Of a DNA stretch of 64,000 bases, positions 7,589-59,922 are shown piece after piece (positions within the stretch are counted from its first letter, which is position 1; every line of letters begins with the position of its first letter). The notes beneath the pieces were generated by a model, which saw nothing but the letters and a program-made list of their open reading frames with translations, made no database searches and was not told the DNA's origin. Location of the stretch: positions 544,001 to 608,000 of the forward strand of contig CAWIIB010000009.1 of NCBI GenBank assembly GCA_963836075.1. The letters are read 5' to 3'. The translations under genes and the position numbers were made by a program. The stretch comes from an uncultured Acidobacteriota bacterium. Lineage in GTDB: Bacteria; Acidobacteriota; JAQAZP01.

Positions 7589-7692
7589 CTTCCACTCTCT
7601 CCTTGCTGGGTGACAACGGCCGAAACCGTCATGCAGAAACGAAATTGAATAGACATCTTTGTTTTCAAACGCCAGACCTTAGCATTAATCCG

Positions 7693-7733
7693 ATAAAGAG
7701 GTATCAATATACCAGTTTATTTTTGAATGTCAA
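7693..7733 (-). promoter_or_regulatory. sigma70-type hcp promoter with overlapping palindromic operator
   Basis: Minus strand TTGACA (7733-7728), 16 bp, TGG-TATATT; palindrome ATAAAGAGGTAT-caat-ATACCAGTTTAT (10/12) at 7693-7720. Confidence 0.6.
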
Positions 7734-7765
7734 CAATCCCTGACAAGATCATGACGATTGAGTCT

Positions 7766-7930
7766 GGGACACTGAGAAGTGTCTCATGAATGTATAGCGA
7801 GACATCGCAGTGTCTCTGAGACACGGCGGCCATGGGCCAAACCGGCCTCCACCCCTTGCGCTTCATCTAGTATCCATATTATTATCAGGTGTTTAAACTG
7901 ATAAGCTCCAGCTTGGCACGACCTGTGCTA
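7766..7930 (+). promoter_or_regulatory. sigma54 (-24/-12) promoter with upstream TGTCTC/GAGACA repeats (candidate enhancer) and IHF-like site
   Basis: TGGCACGACCTGTGCT at 7914-7929 (GG-N10-GC); several GTGTCTC/GAGACA half-sites at 7766-7825; TATCAGGTGTTTA near 7883. Confidence 0.7.
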
Positions 7931-8051
7931 GTAGACCAGATGAACAGTTTAGGAATTACCGGGCGGACCGGCACAATCCACCGCCCTTTCAGAAACCGGC
8001 CGGAAATAACTCCGGCGATACATCAACGTTTATTTTTCAGGAGACATAACC

Positions 8052-8486
8052 ATGGGCCTCAAGGAGCAGCAGGAAAAGATCGTCGCCAACATGAAGAACT
8101 GGCAGAAGATCGAGGACGCCTCTGTGGCGTCGGTGAGCGAAGTGATCGAGAAGACCGACAACGCGGTAATCAAGATCGTCATGGAGATCATCAAGCGCGA
8201 CTCCGAGATGCACCACCGCATCCAGCAGATGATTGTGGACTGTCTGGAAAGCCAGACCGTGGAAGTGAGTTCCGACGACCTGATCAAGGTCTGGGACCTG
8301 ATCGAGAAGCACATCGCCATCGAAGAGCGGGCCGCCGACCTGGCCACGCACAGCCTGGAAGCCACCGAGGGAACCAAGGGCATGCTGGTGCCGCGCTACC
8401 TTCTGACCTACCTGATGACCGACGAAGCCAAGCACGACAAGCTGCTGGAAGACCTGGAGCTGTTCAAAAAAGGGATGTACAGTTAA
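8052..8486 (+). CDS. Ferritin-like four-helix protein
   Basis: RBS AGGAG; DSEMH and DEAKH (ExxH) motifs. Confidence 0.75.
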   Translation: MGLKEQQEKIVANMKNWQKIEDASVASVSEVIEKTDNAVIKIVMEIIKRDSEMHHRIQQMIVDCLESQTVEVSSDDLIKVWDLIEKHIAIEERAADLATHSLEATEGTKGMLVPRYLLTYLMTDEAKHDKLLEDLELFKKGMYS

Positions 8487-8493
8487 GTATCAT

Positions 8494-8525
8494 CCGGCAC
8501 GCGGGCCCCTCGGGGTCCGCGCCGG
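8494..8525 (+). other. Intergenic GC hairpin (attenuator or mRNA stabiliser)
   Basis: CCGGCACGCGGGCCCC-TC-GGGGTCCGCGCCGG; no clear U-tract. Confidence 0.4.
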
Positions 8526-8588
8526 ACTGCCTTCTTATTCACAACAGAACCTGCCACGTGGTCTGAAGAGTTACCCCGGAGGGAAAAT

Positions 8589-9095
8589 ATGACTATCGAG
8601 GAAGCGATCAAGACGGCCATCGAGTATGAAGTGAAGGTCAAGAACGTTTATGCGGAAGCGGTGAAGGTGGCCGGCAACGACGTCGGGCTGCGGGTCTTCA
8701 GCGTCCTGGCCCGGGAAGAACAGGGTCACGTGGATTACCTGCACTTCAAGCTCGAGGAACTGCACAAGACCGGCACGGTGAGCTCCGACGATCTGGAGAC
8801 GGCCATCCCGTCCCCCGCGGCCATCAATATCGCGGTGGAAAAACTGGAGAACAAGATGGCCGCCGACGACCGGGGCGCCGAGCTGGAGATGCTGCGCAAG
8901 GCCCTGGAGGTGGAAATCGAGACCAGCAACTACTACCAGGAACTGGTCAACACCCTCGAACCCGTGGGACAGAAGTTCTTCAAACGCTTCCTCGAAATCG
9001 AGGAAGGCCACCAGGCGATCATCCGGGCCGAGATCGACTCGCTCAATGGCAGCGGTTTCTGGTTCGACATCCCCGAATTCGACCTCGAGCACTGA
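8589..9095 (+). CDS. Ferritin/rubrerythrin-family protein
   Basis: AIEYE...EEQGH and ALEVE...EEGH diiron motifs. Confidence 0.88.
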   Translation: MTIEEAIKTAIEYEVKVKNVYAEAVKVAGNDVGLRVFSVLAREEQGHVDYLHFKLEELHKTGTVSSDDLETAIPSPAAINIAVEKLENKMAADDRGAELEMLRKALEVEIETSNYYQELVNTLEPVGQKFFKRFLEIEEGHQAIIRAEIDSLNGSGFWFDIPEFDLEH

Positions 9096-9146
9096 CCGGC
9101 CGCGCCGATCCGTTCGGCGCCCACCGGTTTATTACAGGAACAAGCG

Positions 9147-9659
9147 ATGAACAGCAAAACAATGAGTCTCGAAGAAGGGCTGCGGCGGGCCATCGAGGCC
9201 GAGATCGACGGCTACCACTTCTACATGATGGCCGCCAGCAAGTGCGAAGACCCCAAGGGCTGTGAGGTCTTCGAGCAGATGGCCCAGGAAGAGCTGGAGC
9301 ATGTCCGCTTCCTGCGGGCGCAGTATTCTGCCGTCGAAAAGGAAGGCAAGCCGAGCCAGTCGGTGAGACTGGCGGGCCAGGCGCGGCTCGACGCGATGAG
9401 CCCCATTTTCTCGGACAAGATCAAGGGCCGGCTCAAGGATGCGCACTTCGAGATGAGCGCCCTCTCCATCGCCGTCCAGATGGAACTCTCCGCGGTGAAC
9501 TTCTACCGTGACCGGGCCGCCGAATCGGACGATGACACGGTGAAAGATTTCTTCAGCGAACTGTCCAAGTGGGAATCTGGGCACTACAACGCCCTGCTCA
9601 ACCAGCAGCAGGCGCTGAAAGAGGACTACTGGGCGGACGGCGGATTCTCCCCCTTCTAG
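9147..9659 (+). CDS. Ferritin/rubrerythrin-family protein
   Basis: AIEAEIDGYHFY...EELEH and MELSAVNFY...WESGH motifs. Confidence 0.88.
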   Translation: MNSKTMSLEEGLRRAIEAEIDGYHFYMMAASKCEDPKGCEVFEQMAQEELEHVRFLRAQYSAVEKEGKPSQSVRLAGQARLDAMSPIFSDKIKGRLKDAHFEMSALSIAVQMELSAVNFYRDRAAESDDDTVKDFFSELSKWESGHYNALLNQQQALKEDYWADGGFSPF

Positions 9660-9667
9660 GTGCGACG

Positions 9668-10369
9668 ATGAGTACAGCAGACGCCGGCACCGCGGCCCGC
9701 CGCGGAGAGTCGCGCCACGTGCGGCAAAAGAGACTGCTGAGGGATCTCCTGGAAAAACGCGACCGGGAGGGCCTCGTCGCCTGGGCCGACGGGCGCAAGA
9801 AGGGCATCACCGCCCTGCTGGCGCTGCTGCTCTATGAAACGGACGAACTGATCCGCTGGCGCTGCATCGAGGGTCTGGGCCTGCTGGCCAGGGACCAGGC
9901 GCCACGGGGACTGGAGCAGATCCGGGACATCATCCGCCGGTTGCTCTGGATGATGAACGACGAAAGCGGAAATGTGGGTTGGTTCGCCCCCGAGGCCATT
10001 GGAGAAATCCTGGCCAACGTGCCCCGGCTGGCCAGGGAATTTGCCGATCTGCTGCCCAATTTTCTGGTGGAAGAGCCTTTTGAACGGGGCACCCACTGGG
10101 CCATGGTGCGAGTGGCCGTGGCGCTGGGCGACAGTCCTTCCGGGCAAAAAATGCTCGAAGAAGGCGCGGAAAATCTTTTACAATCGTTGAAGGACAAGGA
10201 TGCTTTCACCCGCGCCCACGCGGCCCTGGCCCTCGAACGGCTGGGCCGGCTCACCGGCGCACCGGCAGCGGCCCTGGAAAACGACCAGGCGCCGCTCTCG
10301 GTCTACGACTTCGACACCGGTCAGATGATCGACACCACTGTGGCCGGTTTGCTTGGGGGACGTACATGA
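9668..10369 (+). CDS. HEAT-repeat protein, DVU0298-like family
   Basis: RRLLWMMNDESGNVGWFAPEAIGEI motif; ATG 9668 follows the upstream stop. Confidence 0.7.
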   Translation: MSTADAGTAARRGESRHVRQKRLLRDLLEKRDREGLVAWADGRKKGITALLALLLYETDELIRWRCIEGLGLLARDQAPRGLEQIRDIIRRLLWMMNDESGNVGWFAPEAIGEILANVPRLAREFADLLPNFLVEEPFERGTHWAMVRVAVALGDSPSGQKMLEEGAENLLQSLKDKDAFTRAHAALALERLGRLTGAPAAALENDQAPLSVYDFDTGQMIDTTVAGLLGGRT

Positions 10370-10422
10370 ATATATGAATTTTTCTTGCTCCGCCAAAAAT
10401 TCATATATTCATGTACGTCCCC
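10356..10422. repeat. Perfect 28-bp inverted repeat (REP/MITE-like)
   Basis: GGGGACGTACATGAATATATGAATTTTT, 11-nt loop, AAAAATTCATATATTCATGTACGTCCCC. Confidence 0.9.
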
Positions 10423-10449
10423 GGGAACTGATACAGAGAGGACCAGTAG

Positions 10450-11541
10450 ATGCCACTGGAAGAAATCGGAAAATACAGCGTCAGCCGCCTGCAGGTGCTC
10501 GACGAGCAAGGCAAGGTGGATCCCGAGCTGGAGCCGAAACTCAGCGACGAACAGCTGATGTGGCTCTACCGCAACATGCTGAAGACCAGAAGAGGCGACG
10601 AGCGGATGCTCAAGCTGCAGCGCCAGGGCCGCATCGGGACCTTCGGCCCCTGCACCGGCCAGGAGGCCTCGATCTGCGGTACTGCACTGGCCATGGACGA
10701 AAAGGACTGGCTGGTCGGCTCCTTCCGTGAGAACGGCGCCCGGATGATGCGGGGCGAGCCGCTGATCAACCAGATGGCCTATTTTAACGGGTTCGAAGAA
10801 GGCAACTACTTCGAGGGGATGAACCGCATCACCCCGGTATCGGTCATCGTCGGGGCGCAGCTGCTCCACGCCACCGGCATCGCCTACGCCGCACGGTACA
10901 AGGGCGAAACCGAAACGGCCGTGGTGGCGTTCACCGGTGACGGCGGCACTTCGGAGGGCGACTTCCACGAAGCGCTGAATTTCGCCACTGTCTGGCAGGT
11001 GCCGGTGGTGTTCATCATCCAGAACAACCACTGGGCCATCTCCCACCCGCGGTCGAAACAGACCCACGCCAGGTCCTTTGCCCAGAAGGCCATCGGCTAC
11101 GACATGCCCGGCATCCAGGTGGACGGCATGGACGCGCTGGCCATGTATCGCGCAGTGAAGGAAGGCCTGGACCGGGCCCGCACCGGAGGCGGCCCGTCGC
11201 TGATCGAATCCGACTGCTACCGACTGATGATGCACACCACCGCCGACGACCCGACCAAGTATCGTGACGAGGCCGAGGTGGAAGCCGCCTGGAAACGGGA
11301 GCCGCTGATCCGCTTCAAGGCCTACCTTGAAAACAAGGGGCTCCTCGACGAAAAGGGCCAGGAAAAGATGGAAGGGGAGATCAAGGCTGAAATCGAAGCC
11401 ACGGTCAAGGAACTGGACCAGTGGAAGGGGGGCCCCGTCGATGCACCCTTCGAGCATGCCTTCGCCCACAAGCACCCGGAGATCGAGATGCAGCAGGCCG
11501 AATTCCTCGATCACCTGAGAAAGGAGGGCGCCAATGGCTAA
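10450..11541 (+). CDS. pdhA: Pyruvate (2-oxoacid) dehydrogenase E1 alpha
   Basis: [15 protein letters not shown] motif [17 protein letters not shown]...QNN, HTTADDP. Confidence 0.93.
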
Positions 11542-12515
11542 GCTGAATATGGTCCAGGCGCTGAACCTGGCGATGGCCCAGGAGATGGCCAGAGACAAGG
11601 ACGTGGTGATCATGGGCGAGGACGTTGGTGTGGACGGCGGCGTGTTCCGCGTCACCGACGGCCTGCTGGACACCTTCGGCGAGGAGCGGGTAATCGACAC
11701 GCCGCTGGCCGAGTCGGGCATCGTCGGTACCGCCATCGGCATGGCCATGGCCGGCCTCAAACCGGTGGCCGAAATCCAGTTTTCCGGATTCGCTTTCCTG
11801 ATGTTCCACCAGCATCGAGGGGCACGCTTCCCGCTTTCGCTCCCGGACCCATGGCCACTTGACGGTGCCGATGGTGGTCCGCATGCCTTACGGCGGCAAG
11901 GTTCGGGCCCTGGAACACCACTCGGAAAGCAAGGAAGCCACCTACGCCCATCTGCCGGGTCTGAAGGTGGTCATCCCCTCGACCCCGCGCAATGCCCGGG
12001 CGCTGCTGCTGGCCGCCATTCGCGACCCGGACACCGTGATCTTCATGGAGCCCAAGCGCTCCTACCGCGCCTTCCGCGAGGAAGTGCCGGAGGAGGAAGA
12101 GGTGATGGAGATCGGTAAGGCCCAGATCGTGGAAGAGGGCACCGACCTCACCGTCATTTCCTGGGGCGCCATGATGCGGCCCACCATCGCGGCCGTGGAG
12201 CAGGTGAAAGAAAAGCGCGGGACAAGCATCGAACTGATCGACCTGCTGACCATGGCCCCGATGGACGGGGCGACCCTCGTCGAGTCGGTGCGTAAGACCG
12301 GCCGCTGCGTGGTGGTCCAGGAGGCGGCCCGCTCCTGCAGCATCTCCTCTGAAATCATCGCCCGGATCAACGACCGTGAACTGCTCTACCTCGAGGCGCC
12401 GGTGAAGCGGGTCACCGGATATGACGTGGTCACCCCGTACTTTGCGCGCGAGGAGGCCTATATCCCCGGGCCGGAGCGGATCGTTCGGGGCATCGAGGAA
12501 ACCCTCGACTTTTAG
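11534..12515 (+). CDS. pdhB: Pyruvate dehydrogenase E1 beta, one-base frameshift near 11813
   Basis: [23 protein letters not shown]; continues in the shifted frame as [12 protein letters not shown]...EHHSES. Confidence 0.88.
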
Positions 12516-12524
12516 GAGGTCACC

Positions 12525-13883
12525 GTGTACGAGTTCATACTGCCCGATCTGGGTGAAGGCATCCACGAAGCCGAGATTCTCAAGTGGTATGTCCAGGCCG
12601 GCGACACCATCGTCGAGGACGAGCCGCTGGTGGATCTCGAGACGGACAAGGCCGCGGTCACCATCCCCTCTCCCAAGGGCGGGACCGTGCAGTCCCTGGC
12701 CGGTAAGGTGGGGGACATCGTCAACGTCGGCAACGTGCTGGCGGTGATCGACGATGGGAGCGGCGCCGCAGCCGCGCCGCCTGCCGAAGTGAAGGAAGAG
12801 GCGCCGGCCGCGGAACCGGCTGCGGCAGCGGCCGCACCCGAACCGGCACCTGCGGCAGCCCAAACGCCCGCCCCGCCGGCAGCCCCGGCGGCCGCGGTGA
12901 CGGGTCCGGTGCCCGCCGCACCGGCCACGCGCCGCCTGGCCCGTGAGCTGGGGGTGGAAATCAACCTGGTGCCGCCCACGGGGCCGGCCGGCCGGGTGAC
13001 CCCGGAGGACGTGCGCCGCTTTGCCGAGGGCGGTGTCGCCGACCCGGCCGACCTCCACGTGGAGGTCAAGGCCAAAGATGTTGGCGATGACGAGCGGGCG
13101 CTCAAGGAGTTCGCGGCCCACGCCGCCTCCACCATCCCGCTGCTCGACCTCGAGCCGCTGCCCGACTTCAGCAAGTGGGGCCCGGTGGAAACGGAACAGC
13201 TCCGTTCCATCCGCCGCAAGGTGGCACGGAAAATGGTCACCTCGATGATCCTGGTGCCCCACGTGGCCCACATGGACGAGGCCGACGTCACCCTGCTCGA
13301 GGAATTCCGCAAACGGGAGAAGGATCGCCGGGCGGGTACGCCGGGCGGACACCTGACCCTGCTGGCCTTCATCGTCAAGGCGGTCACCGCGGGCTTGCGG
13401 GCGGCCAAGGCCTTCAACGCCAGCCTCGACCCGTTCAAGGAGGAGATCACCTACAAGAAGTACTACAACATCGGCGTGGCCGTGGACTCGGGCAAGGGAC
13501 TGGTGGTCCCGGTGATCAAGGATACCGACCGCAAGAGCATCATCCAGATCGCGAAGGAGATCGAGGACCTTGCCCTGCGGGCCCGCGAGGGCAAGCTGGA
13601 GGTGGACGAGCTGCGCGGCGGCACGTTCACCATCACCAACGTCGGGCCGCTGGGCGGCACGGCAATGATCCCCACCATCAACTATCCCGAGGTGGCGATC
13701 CTCGGTATGGGCAGGGCCCAGCAGAAGCCGGTGGTCAGGGACGGCGAGATCGTGATCCGCACCCTGCTTCCCCTTACCCTGGCCTTCGACCACCGGATCG
13801 CCGACGGCGCCGACGCGGCGCGGTTCGTAACCGAGATGGTCCGCCAGCTGGCCGATCCGAACCTGTTGTTACTGGAGACCTAG
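12525..13883 (+). CDS. pdhC: Dihydrolipoamide acetyltransferase E2
   Basis: Lipoyl motif ETDKA, Ala/Pro linker, PATRRLARELG, DHRIADG. Confidence 0.95.
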   Translation: MYEFILPDLGEGIHEAEILKWYVQAGDTIVEDEPLVDLETDKAAVTIPSPKGGTVQSLAGKVGDIVNVGNVLAVIDDGSGAAAAPPAEVKEEAPAAEPAAAAAAPEPAPAAAQTPAPPAAPAAAVTGPVPAAPATRRLARELGVEINLVPPTGPAGRVTPEDVRRFAEGGVADPADLHVEVKAKDVGDDERALKEFAAHAASTIPLLDLEPLPDFSKWGPVETEQLRSIRRKVARKMVTSMILVPHVAHMDEADVTLLEEFRKREKDRRAGTPGGHLTLLAFIVKAVTAGLRAAKAFNASLDPFKEEITYKKYYNIGVAVDSGKGLVVPVIKDTDRKSIIQIAKEIEDLALRAREGKLEVDELRGGTFTITNVGPLGGTAMIPTINYPEVAILGMGRAQQKPVVRDGEIVIRTLLPLTLAFDHRIADGADAARFVTEMVRQLADPNLLLLET

Positions 13884-28412: not shown

Positions 28413-29729
28413 CTACAGCTCATCCAGCGGGCTGCGTGCGTCCGGTGCCATCGCCTGCAATACATGGGTGTAGAGCATGGTTGTTTCCACGCTTTTGTGC
28501 CCGAGCAGATCTTGCACCCGACGGATGTCCGTGCCCTTCATCAGAAGCGCCGTGGCAAAGCTGTGTCTCAATGAATGACAACCAGCCGGCTTGGCAATCC
28601 CCGACCGCCGCACCGCCTCCTTCATCGCCCTCTGCACCGTTGCAGTGGCCATATGCCAACGCCGAATCACGCCATCATCACCCACGTTCAGCTTGGCCGA
28701 TGGGAACACAAACTGCCAGCCCCATTCACGCCCCGCATTGGCGTATTTCCGCTTTAGGGCATCCGGCAACGGCGCCTCACCGGCACCAGCCGCCAAGTCA
28801 CGCACGTGCAGGTCCTTCACCTTGGCCAGGTGGTCCTTCAGGCCCTGAACCAACCGCTCCGGTAAAAAGGTAACACGGTCTTTGTCCCCCTTGCTCACCC
28901 GCACCATAATCGATCCGGATGCGAAGTCGATTTCCTTCACCCGTAACTGCACCAGTTCGCTCACCCGCAACCCGCTGCCATAAACCAACTCGAGCATGAG
29001 CCGGTATACCCCCCGAAGTTCATTGAAAACAGCACGCGCCTCTTCCGGCATCAGCACCACCGGCAATCGACGCCCCCGCCGAGCTCGCACTGTTGCGCCC
29101 ATGTCACCCAGATCTTTCATCAGCACATGGCGGAACAAAAACAGCAGTGCATTGAAAGCCTGATTCTGGGTGGATGATGCCACGTTGCGCTGAACAGCTA
29201 GATAGCTGAGATACGACCTCACATCATCCGTTGTCGGTGCAACCCTGGTTGTCCCGTCCACGTAAGCGAGAAATCGCTGAGCCCAACCCAGATAGCTGCG
29301 CTCAGTACGATTTGCATAGCGACGCAACCTCATCAGCTGCCGCATCTCCACCAGCAGCTGCTTTGCGTTCAAGGCCCCAGTATTTCCACATTCACCACCT
29401 ACACCTGATTCCCCGCTCGCCGCACTCGAACCTGTGGAGCTGCCGGAACCATGTACATCAGTTGCCACCCCCGTAACCTGCTGTTTACGATACTGACCAC
29501 AGAAGAGTGCCACCGCATCGGCTGCTTGTCGCAGTTGCCAGCCCTGGGTCCTCCCCTCCCCCAGGTCCTCCAGGAAAACCAGCAACGTGTCCTGCCAGAC
29601 CTCAATCTGCCTGCTTGACTGCAACCGCAGGAACCGCTCCACCCACCCCACGAAAAACTGTATTTTGTGATCGGAAGTCATCCGCTTCTCACGCAGCCAC
29701 ACCGCGTATGCTTCCAACTCGCTGTTCAT
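28413..29729 (-). CDS. intI: Integron integrase with long N-terminal extension
   Basis: ASSTQNQAFNALLFLF, YGSGLRVSE, KGDKDR, IntI-specific insertion LPDALKRKYANAGREWGWQFVFPS, HSLRHSFAT, LLGH, TMLYTHV. Confidence 0.96.
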   Translation of the reverse strand: MNSELEAYAVWLREKRMTSDHKIQFFVGWVERFLRLQSSRQIEVWQDTLLVFLEDLGEGRTQGWQLRQAADAVALFCGQYRKQQVTGVATDVHGSGSSTGSSAASGESGVGGECGNTGALNAKQLLVEMRQLMRLRRYANRTERSYLGWAQRFLAYVDGTTRVAPTTDDVRSYLSYLAVQRNVASSTQNQAFNALLFLFRHVLMKDLGDMGATVRARRGRRLPVVLMPEEARAVFNELRGVYRLMLELVYGSGLRVSELVQLRVKEIDFASGSIMVRVSKGDKDRVTFLPERLVQGLKDHLAKVKDLHVRDLAAGAGEAPLPDALKRKYANAGREWGWQFVFPSAKLNVGDDGVIRRWHMATATVQRAMKEAVRRSGIAKPAGCHSLRHSFATALLMKGTDIRRVQDLLGHKSVETTMLYTHVLQAMAPDARSPLDEL

Positions 29730-29948
29730 CCCCACCCAGCCTTCTGTATCAATCTGATTACTTGCAGTTTACACGTATCGCCAAACACAATACCCGACTA
29801 TGCAACCAGTCTAATATCCAGGTAATACCTGCCAATCACGACCCTGCCAACCAACCTGCGAATATCCAGCCTCCTGGATATCAAACTATCCTCCTATCCG
29901 AGTAATGGCCCGGTTATACCAATCTATTGCAGCCACATTGCCGATCTC

Positions 29949-30177: not shown

Positions 30178-31338
30178 ATGGAAGGCAGGATTCAAGCGAT
30201 ATTCCGTCAGCACTTCGATGCGTATGCCTCGGAACATCGTCTTCCCCTACATGCCCATAAAGCCGCCCGTTCAATCATCAGCTGCCGCACCGAAGCGATG
30301 GGCGGGCACGTGATGCGCTGCCCCGCCGGCCACCTCGAGAAGATCTCATACAACTCCTGCAAGCACCGTTCCTGCCCCCAGTGCTCGAGCCTGCCCGCGG
30401 AACGCTGGCTCGAGAACCAGAAGGCGCAGTTGCTGGCCACCAATCACTTCCACGTGATCTTCACCATGCCCGATGGTCTGAACGACCTCTGGCGATGGAA
30501 CAGGAAGTTGATGGCCGACCTGCTGTTCAAGGCTTCCCGCGACACCCTCTTCGAGCTGCTCGGCGATGAACGCTATCTCGGCGCAAAGCCGGGTCTGATG
30601 AGTTCCCTCCACACCTGGGGCCGAACACTGGTCCTGCACCCGCACCTGCACTGCCTGGTCACTGGTGGCGGTCTGGATGACGAAGGCAACTGGCGACAAG
30701 CCAGGCAGGGCTACCTTCTCCCAGCCCGCCTGGTGAGCGCCCTTTACAAGGGCAAGATGATCGCCTTCATCAGCAAGACGTTCAACGAGGGTAAGCTCCG
30801 GCTACCCGCCGGATCACGGCCCAAGGACCTGTTCCGCCTGCTGGCCCGGCTCAAGAAGAAGAAGTGGAACGTCCGCCTGCAGAGTAAATACGCACACGGC
30901 AACGGCGTGACCACCTATCTCGCCCGATACGTCAAGGGCGGCCCGATCTCCAACCGTCGCGTGATCCGTGTCGATGGACACCACGTGTGGTTCCGCTACA
31001 CGGACCACCGCGACGGCCGCAACAAGACGATGAAGCTCACGCATCGCGAGTTCTTTAATCGGCTTCTGCAGCACGTACCTGTCCCCTACAGCCACACCGT
31101 GAGGTATTACGGGCTTTACCACTCGCACAACATCGATTCACTGAATCGCTGTCGATCGATTATGGGCCAGGCACCGGTGGAAAAACCGGAGCTGATGGAC
31201 TGGTCAGCCTACTGTGAGAAGATCGGTTTGGCCGACCAGGTGACGTGCCCGGTCTGCGGACGGCGGATCATCTACGCCGGCCCCTTGAAACGAGGCAAAC
31301 CACCGCCGGAGGGAGAGCGCTATGACCAAGCAGCGTAA
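30178..31338 (+). CDS. IS91-family (Y2 HUH rolling-circle) transposase, cassette 1
   Basis: Zn-binding YNSCKHRSCPQC, HFHVIFT, LHTWG, HUH motif HPHLHCLVTGGG, YLARY, VRYYG. Confidence 0.92.
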   Translation: MEGRIQAIFRQHFDAYASEHRLPLHAHKAARSIISCRTEAMGGHVMRCPAGHLEKISYNSCKHRSCPQCSSLPAERWLENQKAQLLATNHFHVIFTMPDGLNDLWRWNRKLMADLLFKASRDTLFELLGDERYLGAKPGLMSSLHTWGRTLVLHPHLHCLVTGGGLDDEGNWRQARQGYLLPARLVSALYKGKMIAFISKTFNEGKLRLPAGSRPKDLFRLLARLKKKKWNVRLQSKYAHGNGVTTYLARYVKGGPISNRRVIRVDGHHVWFRYTDHRDGRNKTMKLTHREFFNRLLQHVPVPYSHTVRYYGLYHSHNIDSLNRCRSIMGQAPVEKPELMDWSAYCEKIGLADQVTCPVCGRRIIYAGPLKRGKPPPEGERYDQAA

Positions 31339-41193: not shown

Positions 41194-41303
41194 CCAGCCC
41201 ATTCACCTGGCGCCAGGTGTCACGGCCCTTGCTGGGCAAACGGTCGCTCCTCAGGTGGCAACGGGCCGCGCCACCTGTCTGCAGGTGATGGGTGACGTTA
41301 AAC
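41188..41303 (+). repeat. attC family A
   Basis: GTATAAC...GTTAAAC. Confidence 0.88.
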
Positions 41304-41325
41304 GCACTTATAAGATAAAAAGAGC

Positions 41326-41360
41326 TTGACGCGTAACGTTATACGTCATATCTTACTACC
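41326..41360 (+). promoter_or_regulatory. higBA promoter, probably leaderless, with operator
   Basis: TTGACG-17-TATCTT-6 nt-ATG; TGACG...CGTCA palindrome. Confidence 0.7.
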
Positions 41361-41649
41361 ATGATACGGTCATTCAAAAACAAAGAGACGGAGAAACTCT
41401 TCGGCCGTGTCCGGTCAGCAAAGCTTCCGGGGGATATCCAACGAGTTGCCCTACGAAAGCTCCGCATGCTTCACCGGGCAAAAACCCTTGCGGACCTTAG
41501 AGTTCCGCCAGCAAACCGACTTGAGCGCCTTTCGGGTAATCGAGCCGGTCAGGTACAGTATTCGTATCAATGATCAGTGGCGTATCTGTTTCCGCTGGGA
41601 TTCTGGTGACGCCTTCGAAGTTGAGATCGTTGACTATCATCGAGGCTAG
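41361..41649 (+). CDS. higB: HigB toxin, one-base frameshift near 41552
   Basis: MIRSFKNKETEKLF...PPANRLERL; shifted frame YSIRINDQWRICFRW...VEIVDYH. Confidence 0.88.
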
Positions 41650-41651
41650 CC

Positions 41652-41957
41652 ATGGCTAAAAACAAGCTTGATCCGGTCCACCCTGGTGAGATCCTATTTG
41701 AGGAATTCCTCAAACCTATGGGGCTCAGTCAAAACCAGCTCGCTAATGATATTGGTGTCCCCCCTCGTCGAATCAACGAGATTGTTCATGGTAAGCGTCG
41801 CGTTACGGCGGATACGGCTTTGCGGTTGGCAAAATATTTCAAGATGTCCCCAGAGTTTTGGCTCGGTCTTCAGATGGACTACGAGTTAGACCTCGAAATG
41901 GACCGTCTTGGTGACCGTTTAAGCAAGGAAGTTGGCGAATATTCACGAGCATCTTAG
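41652..41957 (+). CDS. higA: HigA antitoxin
   Basis: HPGEILFEEFLKPMG...RINEIVHGKRRVTADTALRL...FWLGLQ. Confidence 0.93.
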   Translation: MAKNKLDPVHPGEILFEEFLKPMGLSQNQLANDIGVPPRRINEIVHGKRRVTADTALRLAKYFKMSPEFWLGLQMDYELDLEMDRLGDRLSKEVGEYSRAS

Positions 41958-41964
41958 AAGAGGC

Positions 41965-42079
41965 GTCCAACAAGCCCATTCACCTGTCAGCCAGGTGTCA
42001 CGGCCCTTGCTGAACACTTGGCCGTTCTTCTGCTGGCAACGGCCGTGCCACCTGTTGCAGGTGATGGGTGGCGTTATGT
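41965..42079 (+). repeat. attC family A
   Basis: GTCCAAC...GTTATGT. Confidence 0.9.
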
Positions 42080-43012: not shown

Positions 43013-43122
43013 CCATCCCATTCACCTGTCAGCCAGGTGTCACGGCCCTTGCTGAACAGATGGTCGTTATCCTGGTGGCAACGGCCGTGCCACCTGCCCA
43101 CAGGTGATGGTCGGCGTTAGCT
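43007..43122 (+). repeat. attC family A
   Basis: ACATAAC...GTTAGCT. Confidence 0.9.
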
Positions 43123-43143
43123 CGACTCCAGAGAGGAAGATTA

Positions 43144-43407
43144 ATGAAGGCATATGGGAAACCTTCTATCGATTCCATCCGCTCTTTTGAAACATCAGCT
43201 CTATCATGTGCAAAGACCACGGATCCGCCCCCAGGATCTTTCCATTTGGGAAGTGCATACGATACCTTCACTGGCCATTTTGCTTTTGGATGGGGGACTT
43301 TGGAATCCCAAACCGGTTCAGCAGGCATCGGATTTGGCCCTGGTGGAACCTCATATTCTGGATCATATATGGGCGCTTGTGGTATATGGATAACATTCAG
43401 CTCTTAA
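43144..43407 (+). CDS. 87-aa RiPP-precursor-like peptide (cassette)
   Basis: RBS AGAGGAAG; fills the cassette; YGKPSI leader-like motif; reading frame supported by the homolog at 57826-57939. Confidence 0.7.
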   Translation: MKAYGKPSIDSIRSFETSALSCAKTTDPPPGSFHLGSAYDTFTGHFAFGWGTLESQTGSAGIGFGPGGTSYSGSYMGACGIWITFSS

Positions 43408-43422
43408 GTTAATCGAATGATG

Positions 43423-43537
43423 AGCTAACAATCCCATTCACCTGTCGTCCAGGTGTCACGGCCCTTGCTGAACCACCGGTCGTTTTGCTGGCGGCAACGG
43501 CCGTGCCACCTGCCGCAGGTGATGGGTGGCGCTGTGC
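43423..43537 (+). repeat. attC family A with mutated R' (GCTGTGC)
   Basis: AGCTAAC...GCTGTGC; the next cassette's R'' GCACAAC implies ancestral GTTGTGC. Confidence 0.85.
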
Positions 43538-44986: not shown

Positions 44987-45105
44987 GCACAACAATTGAA
45001 TTGAGCGGGCCGGGGATTCCATCCCCAGCGGTCAGGCGAATGGCTTGAGCCACCCACGCGCCGGATAAGCATCCGGCATCCCGGCCGCTCATTCTGTCGT
45101 TGGAC
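44987..45105 (+). repeat. attC (singleton)
   Basis: GCACAAC...TGAGCGGGCCGGG...CCGGCCGCTCA...GTTGGAC. Confidence 0.85.
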
Positions 45106-53612: not shown

Positions 53613-53728
53613 GCCTAACCATCCCATTCACCTGTTGGCCAGCTGTCACGGCCCTTGTTGATCATCCGGTCGTTCTCACAGGCGGCAACGGCCGTGCCAC
53701 CTACCACAGGTGATGGGTGACCCTAGGT
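53613..53728 (+). repeat. attC family A with destroyed R' (CCTAGGT)
   Basis: GCCTAAC...CCTAGGT; the next R'' GACCTAAC implies ancestral GTTAGGTC. Confidence 0.85.
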
Positions 53729-54043: not shown

Positions 54044-54155
54044 CAAGCCCATTCATCTGATGGCCAGGTGTCACGGCCCTTGCTTGACAGCCGGTCGCTA
54101 TCGCTGGTGGGCAACGGCCGTGCCACCTGTCCGCAGGTGATGGGTAACGTTAGGT
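54038..54155 (+). repeat. attC family A
   Basis: ACCTAAC...GTTAGGT. Confidence 0.9.
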
Positions 54156-54179
54156 CAGCGACTAAAGAGGAGATGTGTA

Positions 54180-55136
54180 GTGCTATTAATTGCTCAAGAA
54201 TTGAAGCACTGTAGGTTTGTGCTTATATCCACTTTCTGTATCTGCCTTGCAGTGATTCTGGTTTCCGGCTGTGAGGCTAACAAGCGCAGTGTTAAGGAAC
54301 TCAGCGTTCAAACTCCTGACGTAACATTGTTTGCACGCACCGCGGGGCATCTGGAGTCCGGTAACGTGCTCATAGCAGTTAACGGTGGGCCTGGCTTGTC
54401 CAGTCACTATATGCTCAGCTTAGAGCGCTTGGCGGGCACTGAGCTCGCTGTGATCACCTATGATCAAAGAGGGGTGAGCCGATCGACGGACGTACCCCCC
54501 ATTCCTGATAATTTCACGTTTCAGAAATATGTGGAGGATCTTGAGTATGTGCGGGCAGCGAGTGGAGTGGAGACCGTTCACCTGTTGGGACATTCATGGG
54601 GTGGCCTCGTGGCGTTGAGCTACGCTGTAACCTATCCGGAGAGGATACGTTCGATAGTCCTAATAGGCTGTGGCCCACCCACATGGGACCAGGTACGAAC
54701 ATGTTTTGAGAAGATCCAGCAAAGATTCGTGGAATTGCAAGCTTCGGGGCTGATCCCCAGCGGTCTGACACCGGGGACAAAGGAGTTCGGGGAAGCGATC
54801 CTCGCAGCTTACTTCTCTGATCCGACCTTCTGGTTTTCGTCAGACGACGAAGGAAGTGAGCCGGTACAAAATCAACGAGTGAACCAGCTGACTTGGACAG
54901 CTGTTCAGGATTACGATTTGACTTCCGAACTTTCTAGGCTGGAGCACCGAGTATTGGTGCTCCGAGGCGAGGGTGATCCATGTGAGCCGTCCGCCGGCCA
55001 GGCCGTTGAAGAAGCACTGTCGTCCGCCGAAATCCTGTCTGTTATGTTGAAAGATTGCGGACACTTCTGGCACGAGTGTCCCGAGGAGTTTTTCGCAGCG
55101 GTTAGACCGTTCCTTTACGAATCAGTGACGGAGTAG
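54180..55136 (+). CDS. Alpha/beta hydrolase (proline iminopeptidase-like) lipoprotein (cassette)
   Basis: Lipobox VSGC, NGGPG, YDQRG, GHSWGG, CGHF. Confidence 0.9.
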   Translation: MLLIAQELKHCRFVLISTFCICLAVILVSGCEANKRSVKELSVQTPDVTLFARTAGHLESGNVLIAVNGGPGLSSHYMLSLERLAGTELAVITYDQRGVSRSTDVPPIPDNFTFQKYVEDLEYVRAASGVETVHLLGHSWGGLVALSYAVTYPERIRSIVLIGCGPPTWDQVRTCFEKIQQRFVELQASGLIPSGLTPGTKEFGEAILAAYFSDPTFWFSSDDEGSEPVQNQRVNQLTWTAVQDYDLTSELSRLEHRVLVLRGEGDPCEPSAGQAVEEALSSAEILSVMLKDCGHFWHECPEEFFAAVRPFLYESVTE

Positions 55137-55183
55137 GCATAAGACTAGCAGGGCACTTGAGATCTAGCCAGACTGGATTGCGA

Positions 55184-56261
55184 CTTGACATCAAGTTTGA
55201 ACTGCGACAGTAGCCCTTACGCATAGACGCACTCCTCAGGTGTGAAGAAGCCAAGGATTTTCCTGGGCCGAGTGTTCAGCTTTGCAGCAATGGCGTTGCA
55301 TTGCTGCTGGCTCACCGAGGCCATCGATTCGGATTTAGGCAGATATTGGCGGATGAGGCCGTTGGTGTTTTCATTAGTGCCACGTTCCCAAGAGTGATAA
55401 GGCGTGGCGAAGTAAAACTGAACTCCGGTATTTTGCTCGATTAATTTGTGGCCATGGAATTCCGTACCATTATCAGCAGTGATCGTCTTAATTTTCTTTT
55501 GATGACGTTTGATAATTTTAAGTAACCTGGCGTTGAGCTGGTCGATGGTTCTCGCCTTGAGCTTGCCTATGAGGGTGTATCTGGTCTTCCGCTCCACCAG
55601 GGTGACGATACAGTCTTTACTTCCCTTGCCCAGCACCGTATCGATCTCCCAGTGGCCGAAGGTCTTCCAGGTTTCAACATCCGCAGGGCGCTCTGATATG
55701 TGGCGCTTCCCGGCCAAGCGGCCCCTGCTGTCATAGGCGCCATAGCGCTTGCGACGTTGCTTAAAAGCACCGCGAAGGTGGGTGTAGAGGTCACCGCCGG
55801 CTTCCATGTCGGCCCAGACGTATAGATAGATGGTTTCGTGGCTGATATTTAGCAGGTTCTCCCGTTTCAGATAGCCGGAGACCTGCTCAGGGCTCCAGTC
55901 GAGAAGCAGCAGAGATTCGACCATGGCAAAGTCCTGGGCTGTGAACTGCTGATTTCTTCGAGAGCGGCTACGCCGGCCTCGTGTTCGACTGTCAGCCTTG
56001 AAAGGACGATAACCCGTATCGCTGCACTGGTTTCGTCTGATCTCACGGTAGATGGAGCTGCGGTGGCGGCCGAGGATCCTGGCTATCCTCGAGGTTTTAA
56101 AACCTTGTTTTCTGAGGGCAGAGATCATATATCTCTCTTCACGGGTGATCTGGTGATAAATCATGGCTGCCTCCCTTTAATTGGTCGTTGAGAGAAGCAG
56201 CCATTATCCCAGATCGCCCGTGCTTTAAGCACAGGTGTCGCACTTAGTATATGAATTCGCG
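55184..56261 (-). mobile_element. IS30-family insertion sequence
   Basis: Imperfect 26-bp terminal IRs ending TGCGACA/TGTCGCA (16/26 match) around the transposase. Confidence 0.85.
55217..56164 (-). CDS. IS30-family transposase
   Basis: WSPEQV, SHETIY, GHWEIDTV, TADNGTEF, WERGTNENTNGLIRQY, LNTRPRKILG. Confidence 0.95.
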   Translation of the reverse strand: MIYHQITREERYMISALRKQGFKTSRIARILGRHRSSIYREIRRNQCSDTGYRPFKADSRTRGRRSRSRRNQQFTAQDFAMVESLLLLDWSPEQVSGYLKRENLLNISHETIYLYVWADMEAGGDLYTHLRGAFKQRRKRYGAYDSRGRLAGKRHISERPADVETWKTFGHWEIDTVLGKGSKDCIVTLVERKTRYTLIGKLKARTIDQLNARLLKIIKRHQKKIKTITADNGTEFHGHKLIEQNTGVQFYFATPYHSWERGTNENTNGLIRQYLPKSESMASVSQQQCNAIAAKLNTRPRKILGFFTPEECVYA

Positions 56262-56263
56262 CC

Positions 56264-56379
56264 TGCGAACAAGCCCATTCACCTGTCAGCCAGGCGTCAC
56301 GGCCCTTGCTGATCAATCGGTCGTCATTCTGGTGGCAACGGCCGTGCCACCCGCCTGCAGGTAATGGGTGGCGTTCCCG
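56264..56379 (+). repeat. attC family A
   Basis: TGCGAAC...GTTCCCG. Confidence 0.88.
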
Positions 56380-56464: not shown

Positions 56465-56740
56465 ATGAGTATTGAAAATGACATCCGACCAATCACCTAT
56501 CTAAAATCAAGAGCAGCAGACTTACTGAAACAGGTAAACGAAACCCAGCGACCCGTCATCATCACCCAGAACGGAGAACCTAGGGCGGTTCTTCAAGATC
56601 CCCAAAGCTATGAAAGCATGAGAAATGCCCTAGGACTCCTGAAGCTGATCTCGCAAGGCGAAGAGGATATCCGCAAGGGAAAGGTCCGCACTAAGGATGA
56701 GGTCTTTTCGAGAATCGAAAAGGCGATACGCAAGAAATGA
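56465..56740 (+). CDS. Phd/YefM antitoxin
   Basis: DIRPITYLKSRAADLL...PVIITQNGEPRAV. Confidence 0.92.
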   Translation: MSIENDIRPITYLKSRAADLLKQVNETQRPVIITQNGEPRAVLQDPQSYESMRNALGLLKLISQGEEDIRKGKVRTKDEVFSRIEKAIRKK

Positions 56741-57063
56741 AAGAAACATTCGGAGTCTTTTGGGCCGCCGTAGCTGAAAAGGATCTTTTGGGAGTCGTCG
56801 ATTTCATTGCTGAAGAAGATCCTGAAGTTGCCCTGAATATCCTGAACAAGATCAAGGATCGCACATCTACGCTTGATCATTACCCTATGCGGGGTCGTAA
56901 CGTACCAGAGCTACTACAACATGGCATGGCACGATACCGTGAACTTGTGATCAACCCCTGGCGGGTGATCTACAGGATTGAAGAAAAGAAAGTGTATGTC
57001 GTTTCTGTTATTGACTCACGCCGTAACGTGGAAGACATTCTGCTGGCGAGATTTCTAAGATAA
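56737..57063 (+). CDS. RelE/ParE toxin
   Basis: AEKDLLGVVDFIA...GRNVPEL...YRELVINPWRVIYRI. Confidence 0.92.
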   Translation: MKETFGVFWAAVAEKDLLGVVDFIAEEDPEVALNILNKIKDRTSTLDHYPMRGRNVPELLQHGMARYRELVINPWRVIYRIEEKKVYVVSVIDSRRNVEDILLARFLR

Positions 57064-57065
57064 TT

Positions 57066-57231
57066 CGAGAACAACCACATTCAACGGTCAAGCCGATTCC
57101 GTCACGCTGGTTGCAAACCATACTGCCATTCATACGGCTCGATTCGCCGCTGCCAGGCCTTACCAAAGCAACCAGCGCGCCGGCCGGCGCTTCGCACCGA
57201 CTCGGCTTGCCGCTTATGTGGGGCGTTAGCC
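57066..57231 (+). repeat. attC family B (extended, 166 bp)
   Basis: CGAGAAC...GTTAGCC. Confidence 0.88.
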
Positions 57232-57243
57232 GCAGAAGGATAG

Positions 57244-57825
57244 ATGATTCGTTTCTCTGAAGAGAATGAATATAATTATGGATACACGATGTATTTACGC
57301 ATGCGAATAGTATGTTTATCGATATTGCTTTCTACGCTGTCAACATTGTTGTTTTCACAGGCTACAGTTCGCCAAGGTAGTTCGGCTGATCTTCGACTTG
57401 AACATGATCAGTACAATTACACTTCTCCAATGATTCTTACACAATCATTAAGAACTTTATGCGTAGATCACGATATCGATCGTGATGGGATTGGACGATC
57501 ATTTTCATTCGGAAAGTACAGATGCGACAACGTATCTCTTAAGCAAATATATGTTGAAAGAAGAAATAAGAAGAGATGGCCATCCGAAAGGTTATCGATA
57601 TGGGTTCTTGTATATACATATCCACATCGAGATAAGTTAGTTACCTTGAAACTTAACGTGTATTTGGGTGAGAAATGGATCTGTGGAAGTATCATAACTG
57701 ATATCGATGCCGAGGAAACGAAGGAAACAGAATCCGAGGTGAGCTTCTCATACCCCAAGCATCTATTCACTAGTGGCATTGCACCCGTATTGAAGGTAAC
57801 AATGATCGTCCATGATAACGGATAA
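57244..57825 (+). CDS. Secreted hypothetical protein (cassette; own attC reduced to R'')
   Basis: Signal-like segment; stop within GGATAAC, which nearly complements the 5' GTTAGCC. Confidence 0.7.
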   Translation: MIRFSEENEYNYGYTMYLRMRIVCLSILLSTLSTLLFSQATVRQGSSADLRLEHDQYNYTSPMILTQSLRTLCVDHDIDRDGIGRSFSFGKYRCDNVSLKQIYVERRNKKRWPSERLSIWVLVYTYPHRDKLVTLKLNVYLGEKWICGSIITDIDAEETKETESEVSFSYPKHLFTSGIAPVLKVTMIVHDNG

Positions 57826-57939
57826 CTTGGATATGAGTCAGTTAGTGGCTCAGCAGGTGTAGGCGTGGGCCCCGGCGGAACAACATCTAGCGTCTGGTAT
57901 TCTGCAATATGCGGTAATTGGATAACCTTTAGTTCTTGA
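57826..57939 (+). pseudogene. 3' remnant of a homolog of the 43144-43407 peptide
   Basis: Translates LGYESVSGSAGVGVGPGGTTSSVWYSAICGNWITFSS*, versus ESQTGSAGIGFGPGGTSYSGSYMGACGIWITFSS*. Confidence 0.8.
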
Positions 57940-57957
57940 AATTGCCGGAATGATACG

Positions 57958-58073
57958 AGCGAACAAACCCCATTCACTTGGCAGCCAGGTGTCACGGCCC
58001 TTGCAGAACAAGTGGTCGTTATCGCTGAGCAACGGCCGTGCCACCTGTCCACAAGTGATGGGTAACGTTCGCC
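57958..58073 (+). repeat. attC family A
   Basis: AGCGAAC...GTTCGCC. Confidence 0.88.
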
Positions 58074-58083
58074 AAGAGGCCCC

Positions 58084-59181
58084 ATGAGAGAAACTTCAAT
58101 TCGGTTTTGCGAGCACTTTCCGCTGTTCGTCATGAATGGGTGGAATAGGACTACCTGGCTCATACCCATCGTCGTGCTCTCCCTGCTCCAGGCAGGCTGC
58201 AGCTACTGGATTTTCGATGTCGGTATCGGATTGATCGACACGAAAACTCAGTCGATGACTTTTCTGCGGTCGGGGGATAACCGGGAAGTTGTTGTCAATA
58301 TCTCAGAGCAGGATCGGAGTTTTCAGACATTCCATCGTATCGACAATCAACTCCAGATGCGCACGATCACATTCGATGGCAAAGTTCTGAGCAAACGGAC
58401 TATTCCACTCCTGGTGGAAGGTTACGCTGGCAAATACCAATATGCTGTGTCTCCGGACGGCAGCCAAATCATATACTTCGACTATTCTACGAAAGGACTG
58501 CGTATTTACGATACTGTAATTAATGACGACTCCCCACTTATGGACAGGGTGGACTCCACGGGCGTCGGAATAGCGAATATCCACTTTGTCTCTCAGGATG
58601 AAATCGTCCTCATATTGCTCAGTGATGAGGCAATAGGGCGAACCGGAAACGCCATCGTCCAGTTCAATATTGCAACTAAGACTGCGAAGACAATTGCCGA
58701 GCCTATATACCTTTTCTCCTGCCCAGACGCCTCTTTTTCGAGATCGAACAGGTATCTCGCATACTGGGAAGCAAGCGAACAGCACAGCATCTACGGAGAT
58801 GTTCGTATTCTCGACCTGAAGACATCCCAGGTCGTGGGCACAATCGAGAATCCGGGAGATGCCCTTATGAGTTGTCCGTCCGTGAGTCCGAACGAGCAGA
58901 TGGTTGCCTGTGTTGCGGGAAATTCGCTGTTAACGGCGCCGCTCTCAGGTGAGCCGGCAAAGGTAGTGAAGACTCTGCCCGAAAATCTCACCTGCTACTC
59001 CCTGGTTTTCCTCAACGACAAGACACTGCTCTACCGGACCGGCAAGGGCGGCCCCCGGTATGCCCTCACAGCGCTGGATATAGACACCGGCAAGGAAATC
59101 CGGTATTCGAAGCGCGCGTTCAACGGCGATATCTTTGTCGTTGATAATGGGAATCGATTGATCTGCGAACTGGGGGATTGA
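58084..59181 (+). CDS. TolB-like beta-propeller lipoprotein (cassette)
   Basis: Lipobox LQAGC; repeated SPDGSQIIY / SRSNRYLAY / SPNEQMVA blades. Confidence 0.75.
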   Translation: MRETSIRFCEHFPLFVMNGWNRTTWLIPIVVLSLLQAGCSYWIFDVGIGLIDTKTQSMTFLRSGDNREVVVNISEQDRSFQTFHRIDNQLQMRTITFDGKVLSKRTIPLLVEGYAGKYQYAVSPDGSQIIYFDYSTKGLRIYDTVINDDSPLMDRVDSTGVGIANIHFVSQDEIVLILLSDEAIGRTGNAIVQFNIATKTAKTIAEPIYLFSCPDASFSRSNRYLAYWEASEQHSIYGDVRILDLKTSQVVGTIENPGDALMSCPSVSPNEQMVACVAGNSLLTAPLSGEPAKVVKTLPENLTCYSLVFLNDKTLLYRTGKGGPRYALTALDIDTGKEIRYSKRAFNGDIFVVDNGNRLICELGD

Positions 59182-59871: not shown

Positions 59872-59880
59872 GAAAGGGTG

Positions 59881-59922
59881 AGCTGACGTGGCACCAGCCC
59901 GCAGGTGATGGGAACTTCGTGC
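59881..59922 (+). repeat. Internally deleted, dead family A attC
   Basis: AGCTGAC joined to ...CGCAGGTGATGGG-AA-CTTCGTG. Confidence 0.65.

Follow-up and report, generated by a model that had tools for sequence, protein, structure and literature searches.

Fusions of gene cassettes have been described in class 1 integrons. For example, the fused blaGES-1/aacA4 pair behaves as one cassette in excision and yields a polycistronic transcript, and the introduction of the report on this pair describes fusions in which both coding regions are kept complete (PMC4670013). Here we describe a composite cassette whose second coding region is incomplete. It is located at 57226-58067 of a 64,000-nucleotide (nt) stretch of DNA from an uncultured Acidobacteriota bacterium, hereafter the window (G000:C9:544001-608000, where G000 is the bacterium's own genome and C9 the contig). 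The cassette holds an open reading frame (ORF) without recognized relatives (an ORFan), the 3' part of a second gene and a single attC site. The second part is probably a non-functional 3' relic of a gene for a peptide of ~88 amino acids (aa), left by a deletion that fused two cassettes. The features needed for this argument are the following:

57066-57231, plus strand: type-B attC of the upstream Phd/ParE cassette, whose R' core GTTAGCC (57225-57231) sets the start of the composite cassette
57226-58067, plus strand: composite (fused) cassette with ORFan gene, then peptide remnant, then one attC, bounded by R' GTTAGCC (57225-57231) and R' GTTCGCC (58067-58073)
57244-57825, plus strand: ORFan ORF of 193 codons from the ORF list, with an N-terminal hydrophobic, signal-like segment and stop codon TAA at 57823-57825
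57820-57826, plus strand: GGATAAC, possibly what is left (the R'' core) of the attC that the ORFan cassette has lost, 1 mismatch from GGCTAAC, holding the stop codon
57826-57939, plus strand: 3' remnant of a peptide gene, 37 codons and TGA, homologous to the ~88-aa peptide family
57958-58073, plus strand: type-A attC of the peptide cassette, R'' AGCGAAC (57958-57964), R' GTTCGCC (58067-58073), repeat families D2/D4/D5
43117-43531, plus strand: intact peptide cassette with an 87-aa gene (43144-43407), AGGAAG upstream of it, R'' AGCTAAC at 43423 and a degenerate R' GCTGTGC at 43531

The TAA that ends the ORFan lies within GGATAAC and, as stated in the original prediction, the same frame runs on from C57826 for 37 codons (57826-57936), as LGYESVSGSAGVGVGPGGTTSSVWYSAICGNWITFSS, until a TGA at 57937-57939. 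This continuation aligns without gaps to the C-terminus of the peptide encoded at 43144-43407, with 22/34 identities (E 3e-4 in a single BLASTP comparison) and 65% identity over the shared part. The Smith-Waterman score of this pair is 114, compared with 31.3 +/- 6.0 (maximum 72) for shuffled remnants, and the score is reached by 0/20000 of the latter (z 13.8); shuffling the full 43144 peptide instead likewise gave 0/20000. We further used a family profile of 88 positions, built from the best 120 of 151 database homologues of the 43144 peptide. Among 2503 six-frame segments of the window, this profile matches the 43144 peptide at E 6.7e-42 and the remnant at E 5.7e-13, the latter at positions 54-88, and positions 1-53 left no trace in these segments apart from the intact 43144 gene. 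The remnant is truncated, lacking the leader, the first half of the core, the first invariant Cys and both invariant His (all within positions 1-53), as well as a ribosome-binding site and a start codon, with no ATG in its frame. It also deviates from the family at the nearly invariant F64, S70 and G77. The claim of a second allele in the array holds in so far as a second, truncated family member is present, but the word allele is too strong for 65% identity, and three chromosomal paralogues from the same genome are closer to the remnant (69-72%) than the 43144 peptide is. The best database match to the remnant among the matches listed has 26/36 identities, and no intact version of its allele occurs in the best 120 of 151 database homologues.

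An integron cassette normally begins with six bases that are complementary to the R'' core of the attC it carries. A scripted tabulation of the array found this complementarity to be perfect in the four variable positions in 27/32 cassettes that have both ends; the exceptions are cassettes 13 (1 mismatch), 14 (2), 31 (3), 32 (1) and 33 (2), the last being the composite cassette. Its start, TTAGCC, predicts an R'' of GGCTAAC, whereas the actual core is AGCGAAC, a discrepancy already noted in the original prediction, and the outer ends of the cassette (TTAGCC vs AGCGAAC) do not correspond, as expected of ends from different cassettes. Between 57826 and 57957, neither a motif scan nor a single-stranded fold (z +1.5) revealed an attC core motif or hairpin, so that two cassette-derived segments stand together without a functional attC between them. 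The bottom strand of the terminal attC (57955-58076) folds at -36.5 kcal/mol (z -7.9), which is matched by 0/200 shuffles. The ORFan stop and R'' are 132 nt apart; no other of the 33 such gaps in the array is as wide (the next are 85 and 72, and 2-12 are typical), and the distance equals exactly the 114-nt remnant plus an 18-nt spacer. Since a truncated second family member, a missing intervening attC and mismatched cassette ends are found together, a cassette fused by deletion is the most economical reading.

We infer the following scenario. A full peptide cassette would formerly have been located downstream of the 193-codon ORFan cassette in a chromosomal integron, and a deletion of roughly 0.3 kb would have removed the attC of the ORFan (beyond its R'' core) together with the peptide gene's 5' untranslated region, leader and first ~50 codons. 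Judged by the intact cassette 43117-43531 and by how long the attC sites of the array are, the lost piece may have measured roughly 0.28-0.33 kb. The product would be a single composite cassette, 57226-58067, with a usable attC on both flanks and mobile as a unit, and the remnant, if transcribed at all, would form the 3' tail of the ORFan message and remain untranslated. The truncation, the missing attC and the mismatched ends thus agree with the proposal that a deletion took one attC and the 5' half of the peptide gene; the intact cassette predicted along with it was not found (see below). A junction catalysed by IntI was considered as well, as AAC|TTGGAT resembles a core site, and was rejected because the observed product could not be derived from bottom-strand attC chemistry; the event is kept as an unspecified illegitimate deletion.

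The left end point of this deletion is tied to GGATAAC, which had been taken for the R'' of the ORFan gene. It is located at the break, differs from the expected GGCTAAC by 1 mismatch and overlaps the stop codon, which is a normal layout here (the stop lies inside R'' in 5/33 attC of the array). Shuffled sequences had a heptamer of equal closeness to GGCTAAC in a fixed 16-nt frame in 158/20000 cases. The heptamer is plausible as an R'' relic but not proven to be one. Nucleotide homology to a congener copy and to the 43144 gene is clear from GAG TCA (57835) onward and plausible from TTGGA (57827), and the break could be a few bases upstream of GGATAAC.

Several observations weigh against the deletion reading. 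A heptamer this close to GGCTAAC occurs somewhere in the cassette in 759/2000 shuffles, GGATAAC falls 1 mismatch short of the expected core, and the identical GGATAAC recurs at 57920, within the NWIT codons of the remnant. An intact cassette of the remnant's allele, predicted to start with GTTCGCT, was found neither in the own genome nor in 40 relatives nor by a metagenome pattern scan, and the same searches, extended to 5.8 billion proteins, did not reveal an ORFan cassette with its own attC. Four sequencing runs did not show the intact cassette either; their contigs cover 57201-57631 and pieces of attC, and none crosses 57632-57968. Furthermore, the remnant is in the frame of the ORFan, and if an X is put in place of the stop, the match to the profile runs on over G X L G as far as position 50 (G X L G Y E S vs g f g a s e s). 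This would be expected if the break lay upstream of 57820, the ORFan having lost its own 3' end in an in-frame fusion to the C-terminal part of the peptide, or if a natural long form carried this segment as a C-terminal domain; in both cases a nonsense mutation at an aromatic position of the family (G-F/W-G) would later have produced the TAA at 57823; GGA T.. is also shared with GGA TGG at the aligned place of the 43144 gene. We regard such a history as unlikely, since the extension brings no gain in score (43.0 vs 46.0 bits), a change from TGG to TAA takes two substitutions, and a stop within an R''-like heptamer needs no special explanation in this array. Moreover, a weak search found no family member longer than 153 aa, nearly all members among the matches listed have 84-94 aa, and the mismatched cassette ends would still require a lost attC.

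Another point against the deletion reading is a 10-nt repeat, GTTCGCCAAG, found at 57367-57376 inside the ORFan ORF, directly after its signal-like segment, and at 58067-58076, where it covers R' and the bases with which the next cassette begins. In the other 29 cassettes (30 compared), not even 7 nt of the downstream R' recur within the body, which hints at a possibly more complicated cassette history. The unit of attC 57958-58073 might then start at 57368 (TTCGCCAAG, 1 mismatch to R'' AGCGAAC), so that 57226-57367 would be the stump of another cassette, the 193-codon ORF a chimera, and the remnant a separate truncation. This boundary is quite improbable: it needs two events instead of one and leaves the missing 5' half of the peptide gene unexplained, the ORF is uninterrupted, its N-terminus is signal-like and its composition stays even across 57367 (G+C content (GC) 0.366 vs 0.395), and chance alone would yield about 0.6 occurrences of GTT plus four positions with up to 1 mismatch in 733 nt. 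It is very unlikely that the remnant is functional, either as a leaderless core peptide from an internal GTG or as a read-through C-terminal extension of a secreted ORFan protein. Its 37 codons are still open and most family-consensus residues are kept, but the in-frame GTG is not preceded by a Shine-Dalgarno-like string, the leader meant for a recognition protein is missing, and, besides the lack of ATG and the departures at F64, S70 and G77, the copy of this allele in the sister species is itself a pseudogene. TAA, being the strongest stop codon, counts against read-through, and promoter-like motifs are not in excess. Finally, a chance similarity between two Gly-rich stretches has a next to negligible probability: both are Gly/Ser-rich and low-complexity-like, but none of the composition-preserving shuffles described above reached the observed score, and the E value of the profile match and the 89% nucleotide identity over 73 nt with a sister-species copy speak equally against it.

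The remnant is judged to be a pseudogene fragment without function because it has no ATG and no leader, has lost the invariant Cys and His and departs from the family at the three positions named, and because scans for other functions returned nothing. No Rfam match was found in its region, the number of promoter-like motifs (4) was that of shuffled sequences (3.5 +/- 2.2), a terminator scan gave no signal, and nothing was found on its opposite strand. Likewise, no Pfam match was obtained for the 233-codon minus-strand ORF 57468-58169 or for the X-read-through product of the ORFan and the remnant. The ORFan ORF itself (GC 0.385) matches no Pfam or NCBIfam model, has no paralogue in its own genome and finds only itself among 5.8 billion proteins.

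The remnant has its nearest relative in a sister species, in the form of a copy that decayed independently. This copy, at L012:1313-1545 in a genome of the same genus, belongs to the same allele lineage and follows a degenerate type-B attC end at an array edge. The two sequences share 89% nucleotide identity over 73 nt and the unusual motif GVGVGPGGTTSSV. The L012 copy, whose cassette has a degenerate start, retains the leader and the 5' half, has lost its 3' end and attC, and contains TAG and TGA in frame. In the first 24 codons that the two have in common, it differs from the remnant by five synonymous, one non-synonymous and one nonsense change, suggesting that both copies may have been under constraint until recently and then decayed independently. 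The metagenome scan with a pattern coding for AGVGVGPGGTT returned one locus, L051, which was rejected as an independent allele because it carries the same decayed copy as L012.

The 87-aa product of the intact 43144 gene matches no Pfam or NCBIfam model and has 151 database homologues at E<=1e-3. The best 120 of these are 84-118 aa long, nearly all of them 84-94 aa, are unnamed or called 'hypothetical' and contain no Pfam domain. A full HMMER pass over 1.84 billion representatives returned 19 clusters at 50% identity (37-117 aa), 11 of them at E<=1e-10; two of the 19 are C- or N-terminal pieces, and one match of 554 aa looks spurious. In the Protein Atlas, the family is represented only by 'hypothetical protein' clusters. 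In the own genome, 13 more copies are spread over three contigs; their GC is about 0.6 outside the integron, and at least three look frameshifted. The profile has 12 matches in one congener and 10 in another, including partial or decayed ones. The family is mostly chromosomal rather than cassette-borne, and these copies together with the 151 homologues bear out the expectation that further members exist. The assumption of a conserved scaffold with variable positions, typical of a diversified family, did not hold, since an alignment of 38 members has 14 invariant columns, including C22, H34, H45, C79 and W82, and the family is conserved over its whole length. At the N-terminus, its members carry a leader (KPxIxSEKSFETSAL...), which is joined to a Gly-rich core; two Cys are invariant. 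Modelling with AF2 gave a disordered chain (pLDDT 45.7) and no stable fold.

The attC of the intact 43117-43531 cassette folds without R-box pairing, and this cassette may no longer be excisable on its own. A common cassette lineage of the two peptide cassettes beyond the gene itself was considered and rejected: the 3' spacers share only GAATGAT and AGC-AAC, and other attC are closer to that of the 43144 cassette than the attC of the remnant is. Outside the integron, C-terminal-only remnants of the family were observed in the high-GC chromosome of two congeners (L069 1501-1590, L073 1501-1599), and the decay of the family therefore extends beyond the integron. In the own genome, a low-GC (0.49), frameshifted copy at L003 11947-12560 (G000:C9 about 3132950-3133560) directly follows a tRNA gene and a terminator-like hairpin, and looks like a small insertion at the tRNA.

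Judging from gene context, members of this family are probably precursors of peptides that are ribosomally synthesized and then post-translationally modified (RiPPs). Five copies in the own genome are small genes clustered with a recognition element and a modifying enzyme. One of these loci is the following:

L002 (G000:C9:2114000-2128000), 6667-13278, minus strand: candidate RiPP cluster, a run of HprK/ScmC-like, PqqD, radical S-adenosylmethionine (rSAM)/SPASM and S24-like genes and three tandem precursors

The PqqD protein of this run has 91 aa (PF05402, 1.1e-21), and the match of the S24-like ORF is weak. Two B12-binding rSAM genes converge on the run, and at L003 two peptide copies are located immediately before another B12-rSAM gene. 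The peptides would be presented by the PqqD-type recognition protein to the rSAM/SPASM enzyme, and the B12-rSAM and HprK-like proteins would play accessory parts. Of the loci retrieved from other genomes, 11/35 include a SPASM homologue and 7/35 a PqqD homologue. The leader K-P-x-I/V-x-x-E-x-x-F-E-T-S/T-A-L-x-C-G-K is shared with peptides from metagenome-assembled genomes labelled Armatimonadota, Terriglobia, Fermentibacteria and Eisenbacteria (L028-L050), where the match is confined to the N-terminal ~35-45 residues, the tails differ and are often short and Cys-containing, and genes for PqqD and SPASM proteins are often adjacent. Judged by sequence, such a common leader with differing tails fits the pattern of a shared leader with diverse cores, and these peptides apparently form a wider, unannotated precursor superfamily. 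A lasso-peptide reading of the leader (Y..P..I...T) was rejected, as the putative ring Asp is not conserved. A complex prediction for PqqD and leader residues 1-45 gave a weak score of 0.52, compared with 0.01 for the best of three controls; the runs agree in >=95% of contacts and the pLDDT of the partner is >=51. Such a mark is reached by 116/157 solved complexes and 2/215 mismatched pairs, and scores <=0.60 are found in only 18/157 of the former and in both passing mismatches. The pass may stem from likeness to solved complexes of a RiPP recognition element (RRE) and a leader. A point against this part of the interpretation is that the role is read from context and that the enzymes occur at only one cluster per genome.

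The composite cassette belongs to a large array. Host DNA in the window has a GC of about 0.61-0.67, and a low-GC stretch (0.45-0.53) at roughly 32-60 kb is a chromosomal integron. It has an integrase of the tyrosine recombinase type (IntI) and 33 attC sites on the plus strand, at 32113-58073 (about 28 kb), with inverse R'' (RYYYAAC) and R' (GTTRRRY) core sites, hairpin folding and lengths of about 108-159 nt. The cassettes are AT-richer than the host (GC about 0.47 vs 0.65). Three types of attC are intermixed, two of them abundant (A and B). Further features of the integron are:

28413-29735, minus strand: intI, integron integrase (TIGR02249, 381.5 bits vs a cut-off of 265)
30178-31338: IS91-family (Y2 transposase) gene, placed between intI and the first cassette
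44987-45105, plus strand: third-type attC, R'' GCACAAC, R' GTTGGAC, unlike both abundant types
56465-57063: Phd/ParE cassette with Pfam Phd and ParE matches, immediately upstream of the composite cassette

The IS91-family transposase gene may separate the array from attI/Pc. The third-type attC splits an apparent 2.5-kb cassette in two, both halves of which then fit the complementarity between cassette start and R''. The rule is thus predictive here, as the expected heptamer led to the third attC type and resolved one apparent exception. In two attC sites, a degenerate R', GCTGTGC (43531-43537) or CCTAGGT (53722-53728), replaces GTT.... A 2.2-kb cassette at 54150-56373 has 3/4 start/R'' mismatches and two convergent ORFs (318 aa on the plus strand and 315 aa on the minus strand), and may be another fused or rearranged cassette, and cassette 41298-42073 has 2 start/R'' mismatches. 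At 59876-59920, there is a degenerate 3' arm of an attC without GTT, likely the end of the array, and host-level GC is regained after about 60 kb. A second cluster of the same attC types was observed on the minus strand of the contig (G000:C9:1269522-1279341), which could be a second array or an integrase-less attC cluster; no member of the peptide family was found in it by tblastn.

Fused cassettes were already known, and the remnant itself looks ordinary, the new elements being the truncated second gene and the setting in a chromosomal ORFan array. Under the deletion reading, large environmental chromosomal arrays are likewise shaped by the loss of attC sites and the fusion of cassettes, events that have been described as rare in clinical class 1 integrons. 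The complementarity between cassette start and R'' is a practical detector of such events, having flagged the composite cassette and revealed the third attC type. The more useful by-product is the peptide family, which is compact, unannotated and multi-copy in the genus, has one intact copy on an integron cassette, and looks like an unstudied class of modified-peptide precursors. It is conceivable, if rather doubtful, that the integron serves as a mobile store of leader-bearing precursors such as 43144, which would be matured in trans by the single PqqD/rSAM-SPASM/B12-rSAM locus of the host. If so, the remnant at 57826 and the decayed copy of the sister species would be discarded entries, integron shuffling would be linked to the diversification of RiPP products, and trans-maturation would provide a first example of integron-borne RiPP substrates. 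Against such a store, only 1/3 cassette-associated copies is intact (43144, the others being the remnant and the congener pseudogene), and intact copies of two congeners have none of these attC motifs within about 1.5 kb. A full-text search of a limited set of papers found no published link between integron cassettes and RiPP precursors and no description of the leader motif.

Among known RiPP systems, the closest are RRE(PqqD)-dependent rSAM/SPASM systems, in which, as here, a small gene for leader and core adjoins genes for a stand-alone PqqD, an rSAM/SPASM enzyme and an HprK-related kinase-like protein, and core Cys residues are conserved. The nearest NCBIfam names, all below threshold, are SynChlorMet ScmC/ScmE/ScmF, GeoRSP, and sactipeptide and ranthipeptide maturases. 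The cut-offs are not reached for SynChlorMet (ScmC 43.1 vs 125, ScmE 115.5 vs 400, ScmF 86.7 vs 400 bits) or for the GeoRSP rSAM (92.6 vs 400 bits). Unlike the known RRE(PqqD) systems, the peptide has no Pfam or NCBIfam model, its core is long (~65 aa) and conserved, and B12-rSAM genes are found alongside. From these sequence comparisons, the system appears to work like SCM and GeoRSP while being a member of neither. In the prochlorosin-type arrangement, one maturase locus is accompanied by many dispersed precursor genes. The present genome is similar in this respect, with its 13 further copies over three contigs, the 12 and 10 matches in congeners, and PqqD/SPASM at one locus, but the enzyme class is another one, the cores are conserved rather than hypervariable, and action in trans is hypothetical here.

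As for the integron, the description of sedentary chromosomal integrons (PMC11551772) agrees with the present array in a long, mostly ORFan array, highly similar attC, a toxin-antitoxin cassette and AT-rich cassettes. The array differs from that description in its three intermixed attC types and in the IS91-family transposase gene between intI and the cassettes. The composite cassette departs from blaGES-1/aacA4, as far as that report describes it (PMC4670013), in having a second gene reduced to profile positions 54-88 of 88: the deletion would also have taken the 5' half of this gene, leaving one surviving gene. Furthermore, the composite cassette is part of a large chromosomal ORFan array and not of a resistance integron, and its excision as a unit, described for blaGES-1/aacA4, is a prediction.

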